The notes below the pieces were generated by a model, which searched no databases, had not been told where the DNA came from, and worked only from the letters and a program-made list of their open reading frames with translations. A DNA stretch of 64,000 nt. It comes from Escherichia coli. Its GTDB lineage: Bacteria > Pseudomonadota > Gammaproteobacteria > Enterobacterales > Enterobacteriaceae. This document shows positions 24,043 through 24,136 of this stretch, piece after piece. Positions within the stretch are counted from its first letter, which is position 1; the number at the start of each line of letters is the position of its first letter. The position numbers were made by a program, and so were the translations under genes. The stretch lies in the NCBI RefSeq assembly GCF_003019035.1, contig NZ_CP027447.1; one strand, written 5' to 3'.

Positions 24043-24052
24043 TACAATCCCT

Positions 24053-24097
24053 CCCTCTCCACATGGAGAGGGTTTGGGTGAGGGAAAAGCCTCACCC
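24053..24097 (+). other. Two tandem GC-rich hairpins in the mtlA-mtlD spacer (REP-like / attenuator-like)
   Basis: CCCTCTCC-acat-GGAGAGGG (24053-24072) followed by GGGTGAGGG-aaaag-CCTCACCC (24076-24097). Confidence 0.4.
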
Positions 24098-24136
24098 CAG
24101 CCCTCTCGGGTAAAAACATTGATGAAGGTTAATACT

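Follow-up and report, generated by a model that had tools for sequence, protein, structure and literature searches.

A BoxC-type repeat conserved in the mtlA-mtlD spacer of Escherichia coli, a candidate intercistronic RNA element of the mannitol operon

Introduction

Hairpins between cistrons at which RNase III or RNase E processes the transcript include the T7 early mRNA sites and those of rpsO-pnp and papBA. REP/BIME repeats, whose palindromic unit has a consensus of ~35 nt and mostly alternates in orientation, are also said to act as intercistronic mRNA stabilizers, e.g., at malE-malF, a role reportedly put forward by Newbury and Higgins in 1987.

A third kind of palindromic element is the BoxC repeat, reportedly described by Bachellier et al. 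in the 1990s and said to comprise 25 PIT elements in the account of Hoyne et al. from 2000. BoxC, PIT and TMECO are names of one and the same repeat, whose motif is CCCTC(T/G)CCC-loop-GGGAGAGGG-TTA/CCG-GGGTGAGGG (Holder et al., 2015, PMC4666352); PIT stands for potential intrastrand triplex, and is a re-description of BoxC (Hoyne et al., 2000, per PMC4666352). The repeat is present in multiple copies with a strongly conserved consensus in many enterobacteria (PMC4666352), and of the K-12 TMECO copies, of which 23 are listed, some are paired, with a type A unit facing a type B unit in inverted orientation, an arrangement found at five loci (PMC4666352, Table 1). BoxC loci are in general unstable from strain to strain (Holder et al., 2015, PMC4666352). 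The PIT/BoxC elements that were tested had no effect on RNA polymerase and no promoter or terminator effect (Hoyne and Maher, 2002, as summarized in PMC4666352), and no BoxC copy is known to have an assigned function.

Here we describe an element of the mannitol operon, located between mtlA and mtlD in a 64,000-nt stretch of E. coli DNA (hereafter the window), and compare it with each of these systems.

Results

The mtlA-mtlD Spacer Is Predicted to Adopt Two Alternative Folds

The mtlA-mtlD region of the window is 100% identical to that of E. coli SCU-301 and was matched in 5405 of 5426 complete E. coli genomes. A preliminary description of the window had placed two GC-rich hairpins in the 94-nt spacer, and both are present with the sequence it gave (Table 1). 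The arms of hairpin 1 (CCCTCTCC/ACAT/GGAGAGGG) are 100% complementary and extend to 9 nt in a repeat search. Hairpin 2 (GGGTGAGG/GAAAAG/CCTCACCC) differs from its first description in that the ninth G is unpaired, so the stem has 8 bp and the loop 6 nt. The pattern CCCTCTCC-N2-8-GGAGAGGG has a single occurrence in the 64 kb, the expected number being 0.00. The predicted folding energy of the spacer is -38.7 kcal/mol, versus -25.8 ± 3.5 kcal/mol for 200 dinucleotide shuffles (z = -3.7), one of which folded as well as the native sequence.

A third pyrimidine block, CCCTCTC, had been missed in the preliminary description. With it the module has the block order A A' B | B' A2. It also creates a second inverted repeat, of 18 nt (GAGAGGGTTTGGGTGAGG/CCTCACCCCAGCCCTCTC), that gives an alternative hairpin of 18-19 bp. 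The tandem fold (A:A', -38.7 kcal/mol) and the long-hairpin fold (A':A2, -36.9 kcal/mol) are shown by computation to be mutually exclusive and nearly equal in modeled energy, and hairpin 2 (B:B') is part of both. By species, the predicted preference is for the tandem fold in 40 and for the long form in 27, with hairpin 2 formed in every case, and either fold is predicted to leave the mtlD Shine-Dalgarno (SD) sequence and start codon open.

Table 1. Positions of the features of the mtlA-mtlD spacer and of other elements considered in the window.
Feature	Position	Strand	Remarks
naRNA4 (Rfam)	1942-2020	+	REP325-type BIME-derived nucleoid-associated RNA; 71.6 bits, above gathering score
mtlA ORF	22129-24042	+	annotated mtlA in E. 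coli genomes
TAA stop of mtlA	24040-24042	+	
mtlA-mtlD spacer	24043-24136		94 nt
5' flank of BoxC-type unit, ACAATCCC	24045-24052	+	common to flank of K-12 fepB BoxC pair (alignment)
Hairpin 1	24053-24072		A, loop 1, A'
Three-block core	24053-24084		A, loop 1, A', TTT linker, B
Block A, CCCTCTCC	24053-24060	+	pyrimidine block; 5' arm of hairpin 1
Loop 1, ACAT	24061-24064	+	hypervariable among strains and species
Block A', GGAGAGGG	24065-24072	+	partner is A (hairpin 1) or A2 (long hairpin)
TTT linker	24073-24075	+	type-A-like TTA position of BoxC; faces CAG in long hairpin
Block B, GGGTGAGGG	24076-24084	+	24076-24083 form 5' arm of hairpin 2; pair probability ~1.0
Central loop, AAAAG	24085-24089	+	replaces ~25-nt spacer of canonical BoxC pairs
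Block B', CCTCACCC	24090-24097	+	3' arm of hairpin 2; start of inverted type-B-like unit; minus-strand HMM match 24107-24090
CAG linker	24098-24100	+	minus strand reads CTG, cf. K-12 TMECO no. 8
Block A2, CCCTCTC	24101-24107	+	long-hairpin partner of GAGAGGG in A'
GGG, remnant of right outer hairpin arm	24108-24110	+	vestigial 3-4 bp hairpin with CCC 24101-24103
A/U-rich unpaired linker and mtlD ribosome-binding site	24111-24136	+	conserved; SD GAAGG 24124-24128
mtlD ATG start	24137-24139	+	
Adhesin ORF, YadA-like	28024-32970	+	1648 aa
Canonical BoxC remnant, GGGGTGAGGGGAAAAGGCCG	36887-36910	+	one block left; lldD-trmL spacer 36887-36958, 72 nt
gpmM-envC hairpin	42546-42583		envC ATG at 42583
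JUMPstart element	62711-62749	-	Rfam RF01707, 53.1 bits

Searches of the spacer for other elements gave little. Rfam had no match in it at gathering thresholds, and at E <= 10 only spurious miRNA-precursor hairpins were returned; no internal promoter was found on the plus strand. A mini-ORF of 11 codons, running on the plus strand from GTG 24078 to TAA 24113 with an SD-like GGAGAGGG 6 nt upstream, was rejected as a candidate for lack of conservation of its frame and length: across 67 species its length ranges from 2 to 21 codons and in 24 of the 67 there is no stop codon before mtlD. It is probably meaningless.

The Spacer Holds a Truncated BoxC Inverted Pair

Eleven K-12 BoxC loci were aligned in register, and a profile HMM made from 23 K-12 units was run with nhmmer on the window. 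The best match in the 64 kb was the mtl element (24065-24087, E = 2.6e-5, 19.9 bits), and the match is moderate because the element is short and carries indels. Second came the inverted half of the same element (E = 0.38) and third the BoxC remnant in the lldD-trmL spacer. A regular expression built on the K-12 copies had the mtl element as its sole match in the window. Of the five K-12 inverted pairs, four align collinearly with the mtl spacer, from the flank that follows the stop codon (ACAATCC...) through ...CCCTCTC; the fifth pair, at lldD, could be aligned over its type-B half only.

The three-block core of the mtl element, CCCTCTCC-ACAT-GGAGAGGG-TTT-GGGTGAGGG, corresponds to the BoxC motif, written for comparison as CCCTCTCC(C)-loop-(G)GGAGAGGG-3 nt-GGGTGAGGG. 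As in canonical pairs, a TTA-like unit faces a CCG/CTG-like unit, the left linker being TTT (TTA in most other species) and the right linker CTG on the minus strand. The element is also intergenic, shares its flanking bases with BoxC copies, and lies ~10 nt past a stop codon, block A of the window allele beginning 10 nt past that of mtlA. By sequence, an intrastrand triplex is allowed as well, with 8/8 triads of permitted types (G·G-C, A·A-T, T·A-T). The copy is unlike canonical BoxC in that its blocks have 8 nt rather than 9-10 and its central spacer 5 nt rather than ~25, and in that its right outer hairpin is no more than CCC..GGG. The left unit is complete, and the right, inverted unit has been cut down to CCTCACCC-CAG-CCCTCTC-GGG, so that, of a canonical pair, the ~25-nt central spacer and the greater part of the right outer hairpin are missing from the mtl copy. 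In other species the central loop is variable, at 5-19 nt.

Judged by sequence, then, the mtl hairpins are two inverted BoxC units in trimmed form, and the element is a non-canonical further member of this known family that lies outside the published K-12 list: the mtl site is absent from the 23-entry K-12 table of Holder et al. and from the supplements that were searched (PMC4666352). BLAST of the 69-nt module found a median of one place per E. coli genome and a maximum of three, the extra places being, we assume, the duplicated hairpin beside the BIME (see below). As near-identical dispersed copies are thus few in E. coli, family membership could be recognized only with a profile. The preliminary description had considered a repeat-family element, and was borne out to that extent, but the family is BoxC/PIT/TMECO, as both the HMM and the K-12 alignment indicate, and not the REP/BIME family it had named. 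Its expectation of a likely neutral sequence if no repeat family matched does not apply, as a BoxC match was found and the element is clearly not neutral.

A motif between gpmM and envC, which had been proposed as related, has two blocks only, gave no BoxC profile match at E <= 100 and is unrelated. The hairpin noted there (42548-42570) is real and small (-17.1 kcal/mol, z = -2.7), and its stem holds the gpmM stop codon and a G-rich tract, GGGGAAAGG, ahead of the envC start codon. It looks like an ordinary translational-coupling arrangement.

The Module Is Fixed in E. coli and Conserved Among Enterobacteriaceae

MtlD was used to fetch the best 80 MtlD loci from GTDB species genomes, and in 66 of these best 80 the module is found directly upstream of mtlD. 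The genera that have it include Escherichia, Salmonella, Citrobacter, Klebsiella, Enterobacter, Lelliottia, Leclercia, Kosakonia and Pluralibacter, as well as Phytobacter, Siccibacter, Cedecea, Buttiauxella, Atlantibacter, Yokenella and Mangrovibacter. Over 43 stem columns, mean identity to the window is 92%, versus 54% at the four-fold sites of mtlD and 90% for the MtlD protein, and in each of the 66 species the stems exceed the mtlD synonymous sites in conservation. Module and mtlD ATG are 25-27 nt apart in 64 of 67 sequences, and none of the 66 species has an insert between the two. The other side is less constant: the module begins 2-15 nt past the mtlA stop codon in 27 of the 66 species, and in the other 39 an extra structured insert of 30-170 nt intervenes.

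Of 5405 E. coli genomes, 5404 have the module, and the strain-to-strain instability reported for BoxC by Holder et al. (2015) was not seen for it. At lldD-trmL, 13 kb off, the canonical BoxC pair does behave as BoxC loci generally do, being intact in 2715 of 5420 E. coli genomes. Several distinct deletion variants of that pair occur across E. coli; K-12 has the full inverted pair (TMECO nos. 17 and 18) in a spacer of 197 nt. The mtl copy thus departs from canonical copies, which are unstable between strains, in being fixed in E. coli and orthologous in 66 species. Taken together, these comparisons show that a BoxC copy has resided in the mtlA-mtlD spacer since before the Enterobacteriaceae diversified and has been kept by purifying selection.

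The BoxC-type module is absent from 14 of the 80 loci, mostly of Erwiniaceae (Pantoea, Mixta) with a few records labeled Enterobacter. In most of the 14, the place of the module ahead of mtlD is taken by a GC-rich nested hairpin, GGGGCGGGCAAGCCCGTCCC...GGGGCGGATTTGCCCGCCC, that is unrelated to it; this Pantoea-type hairpin is followed by a U-rich tract and could be a leaky terminator.

Small enterobacterial repeats have landed repeatedly in the short mtlA-side stretch, in several genera. It contains REP-like palindromes in Salmonella, Citrobacter and Phytobacter, other hairpins in Klebsiella, additional BoxC units in Cedecea, and ERIC elements in C. werkmanii and C. youngae, with an ERIC-like insert in RIT691 that was recognized by eye. 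In E. coli strains other than that of the window, REPs lie inside an insertion of 135-425 nt just upstream of the module, which the window lacks. In an even sample of 59 E. coli genomes, 10 (17%, including O157:H7 EDL933) were REP-free and the others had 2, 4, 6 or 8 REPs, so that true REP/BIME units adjoin the module in ~83% of E. coli genomes. About 28 nt of hairpin 1 are directly duplicated on either side of the BIME insertion, and the left copy reads CCCACCCTCTCCacatGGAGAAGGTGGGG. Because E. albertii also has a BIME allele, the REP-free allele of the window may have arisen secondarily, by deletion between the two copies, and not be the ancestral empty site.

Pairing in the Sense Transcript Is Maintained

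In an alignment of 67 sequences, 93% of the cells of the long helix (A'-linker-B : B'-linker-A2) are paired, compared with 33-57% in slid controls, and RNAalifold independently gives the same helix. Changes on both sides are present at 6 of its 18 pairs and 0 of 500 shuffles reach the observed values, a statistic that overstates independence, since the species are phylogenetically related. The same reservation applies to the non-Watson-Crick cells outside the linker, which on the plus strand comprise 30 G·U and 4 A·C; this excess of G·U is a signature of a sense-strand RNA and not of a DNA palindrome, with the species again not independent of one another. The linker itself co-varies, the combinations TTC/GAA, CCA/TGG and TTG/CAG giving a perfect helix in some lineages; the majority linker, TTA/CAG, retains an A·C mismatch, and an A·C or U·C mismatch is found in 56 of 66 distinct sequences. 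In hairpin 1, the loop is hypervariable (at least 40 variants in 65 species), and the lengths of the C-run and the G-run are correlated (r = 0.37, permutation p = 0.001).

Where block B has changed, the compensating change is in B' and not in A', and it is therefore the hairpin that is kept, not the mirror rule of a triplex; in retaining a Watson-Crick hairpin the mtl copy is unlike what the triplex rule for BoxC would entail. Computation thus shows the maintained feature to be Watson-Crick pairing in the sense transcript. The blocks are nevertheless nearly invariant in sequence, and covariation is confined to a few columns. Such near-invariance indicates a sequence-specific constraint (protein, triplex or gene conversion from other BoxC copies) that a plain hairpin does not explain.

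Other Features of the Window

Between the mtl and lld operons lies a large ORF for a YadA-like trimeric autotransporter adhesin, with an ESPR signal, a YadA head, 14 stalk repeats and an anchor. A gene of that length would not fit between mtlR and lldP at their K-12 coordinates. Two elements recognized by Rfam are located toward the ends of the window (Table 1), an naRNA4 and a JUMPstart element, the latter presumably in the leader of the waa (LPS core) operon.

Discussion

We somewhat favor the view that the BoxC copy between mtlA and mtlD has been kept by selection as an intercistronic RNA stability or processing element on the mtlADR mRNA. On that transcript, a structure of -35 to -39 kcal/mol would keep a constant distance of 25-27 nt to the mtlD start. 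Its hairpins would be a barrier to 3'-to-5' exonucleases and so would protect the mtlA segment. Cleavage in the A/U-rich linker AAAAACAUUGAU, which has an RNase E-like AC|AUU site, may then produce defined ends; alternatively, RNase III may cleave the long helix. The mtlD ribosome-binding site would be left unstructured and insulated after cleavage, and the boundary of the mtlD-mtlR segment would be set. As a functional reading, an RNase-protection structure is plausible and takes the lead, being favored indirectly by the strong purifying selection on the module and its sense-strand RNA signatures.

There are parallels for such a role. Like the REP/BIME stabilizers of the malE-malF kind, the mtl element is a stable GC-rich palindrome without a U-tract between cistrons for sugar uptake, and by analogy it may act as proposed for REPs, through a barrier to 3' exonucleases and differential stability of mRNA segments. 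It differs from them in belonging to another sequence family, and REPs at the mtl locus are strain-variable additions on the mtlA side, whereas the BoxC-type module is invariant. The likeness to RNase III/RNase E processing hairpins is one of resemblance only: an imperfect helix of ~19 bp beside an A/U-rich single strand between cistrons, with a helix length at the short end for RNase III substrates.

The published maps and texts that we searched yielded no expression data for the site. The E. coli 3'-end map supplements of Adams et al. (2021) have no 3' end at mtlA-mtlD, probably because the operon was uninduced. The mtlADR operon was among those analyzed in LB by Dar and Sorek (2018) but is absent from their differentially decaying operons, and the supplements of a Salmonella RNase E cleavage map have no mtl entries. 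A full-text literature search combining mtlA/mtlD with REP, RNase E, Term-seq and stem-loop returned nothing relevant.

A more elaborate version of this role is that the ancestor of the Enterobacteriaceae had domesticated the BoxC copy as an RNA element with two states, tandem hairpins or one long helix, that tunes the stability, processing or translation of mtlA versus mtlD-mtlR. We put this forward tentatively, as a possibility that we hold to be real, though not the more probable one.

An element acting at the level of DNA, as an intrastrand purine-motif triplex or a cruciform with consequences for replication pausing, recombination or protein binding, is unlikely, even if some observations would suit it. 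TMECO oligonucleotides fold in vitro into intrastrand triplexes that are very stable (PMC4666352), the triads of the E. coli mtl copy are all of allowed types with A' (GGAGAGGG) set antiparallel to B (GGGTGAGG), the blocks are conserved as sequence and not by covariation, and the use of the mtlA-proximal flank as an insertion hot spot for REP, BIME, ERIC and BoxC fits a local instability. However, altered versions of B (e.g., GGGAAAGGG and GGGTGAAAGG) are compensated in B' by Watson-Crick pairing with A' fixed, which breaks the mirror rule, and the preponderance of G·U over A·C in the sense strand (30 versus 4) is unexpected for a palindrome in duplex DNA. In vivo DMS footprinting at a TMECO site did not detect a triplex (PMC4666352), and the module itself is stable, both in E. 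coli (5404 of 5405 genomes) and over 66 species.

We likewise give little credence to a selfish or neutral BoxC copy with no role in the operon, whose conservation would stem from repeated gene conversion by other BoxC copies or from hairpin-templated correction. BoxC is indeed multi-copy with a strong consensus in many enterobacteria and has no copy with a known function, and block lengths in the left unit differ by lineage (2-4 G/C) as would be expected from conversion. Yet the truncated right unit and its junction with the mtlD leader, CCTCACCCCAGCCCTCTCGGGTAAAAAC, are specific to this locus and almost invariant, and conversion from full-length copies would bring back the missing hairpin and spacer. 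The conservation of the stems (92%) compared with four-fold sites (54%), and the fixed presence of the module compared with 50% retention of the nearby canonical pair, also stand against it, and templated correction would not be expected to yield an excess of G·U.

Improbable too is a translational switch in which ribosomes that terminate at the mtlA stop codon melt hairpin 1 and allow A':A2 to form, coupling mtlD to translation of mtlA. The two predicted folds would be suited to this in being mutually exclusive, close in energy (-38.7 versus -36.9 kcal/mol) and differently balanced from species to species (40 tandem, 27 long), as would the placement of the module 2-15 nt past the stop codon in 27 of 66 species with fixed spacing to the mtlD ATG. 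The window allele, with block A 10 nt past the stop codon, is one in which such a switch may operate. But in 39 of the 66 species 30-170 nt of structured sequence part the stop codon from the module, and a BIME intervenes in ~83% of E. coli genomes; with inserts so common, coupling to mtlA termination is not conserved. Neither fold, moreover, would occlude the mtlD SD or start codon.

We regard as very improbable the partial intrinsic terminator, or attenuator, setting the mtlA:mtlD ratio that was raised in the preliminary description. The hairpins are strong, GC-rich and internal to an operon, and in Erwiniaceae the non-homologous hairpin at this position has a U-rich tract, UUUCGUCAUUU, after it. 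In Enterobacteriaceae, however, no stem has a U-tract after it, the downstream sequence being GGGUAAAAACAUUG, and for want of that tract the mtl element is not an intrinsic terminator. A terminator scan of the plus strand of the spacer found no terminator-like site (the sequences after the stems are UUUGGG, CAGCCC and GGGUAAAAAC), and PIT/BoxC elements showed no terminator activity (Hoyne and Maher, 2002, as summarized in PMC4666352).

The REP/BIME identity, also suggested there, deserves next to no weight. The spacer of K-12 and most E. coli strains does contain 2-8 REP units, and a single REP-like palindrome precedes the module in Salmonella and Citrobacter, but REPs are confined to an insertion that the window allele lacks, its spacer (24043-24136) has zero REP sequence, which by sequence refutes the identity for this allele, the hairpin blocks have no resemblance to the REP consensus, and the naRNA4 model matches elsewhere in the window and not in the spacer.

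For annotation, these results correct a likely mislabeling of the element as a REP or a terminator, and show the REP/BIME content of the spacer to be strain-variable (0, 2, 4, 6 or 8 REPs). For the repeat family, BoxC/PIT/TMECO elements have been cataloged for ~30 years and described as triplex-forming sources of genome instability, and the mtl copy is the reverse of this, being fixed, held at a constant distance from the mtlD start, conserved like the neighboring protein and marked by sense-strand RNA signatures, which makes it a tractable test of BoxC function in RNA. If the domestication of this copy as a two-state element were true, it would be the first functional assignment for BoxC/PIT, a repeat whose role has been unknown since the 1990s, and would provide a defined locus at which to test it.
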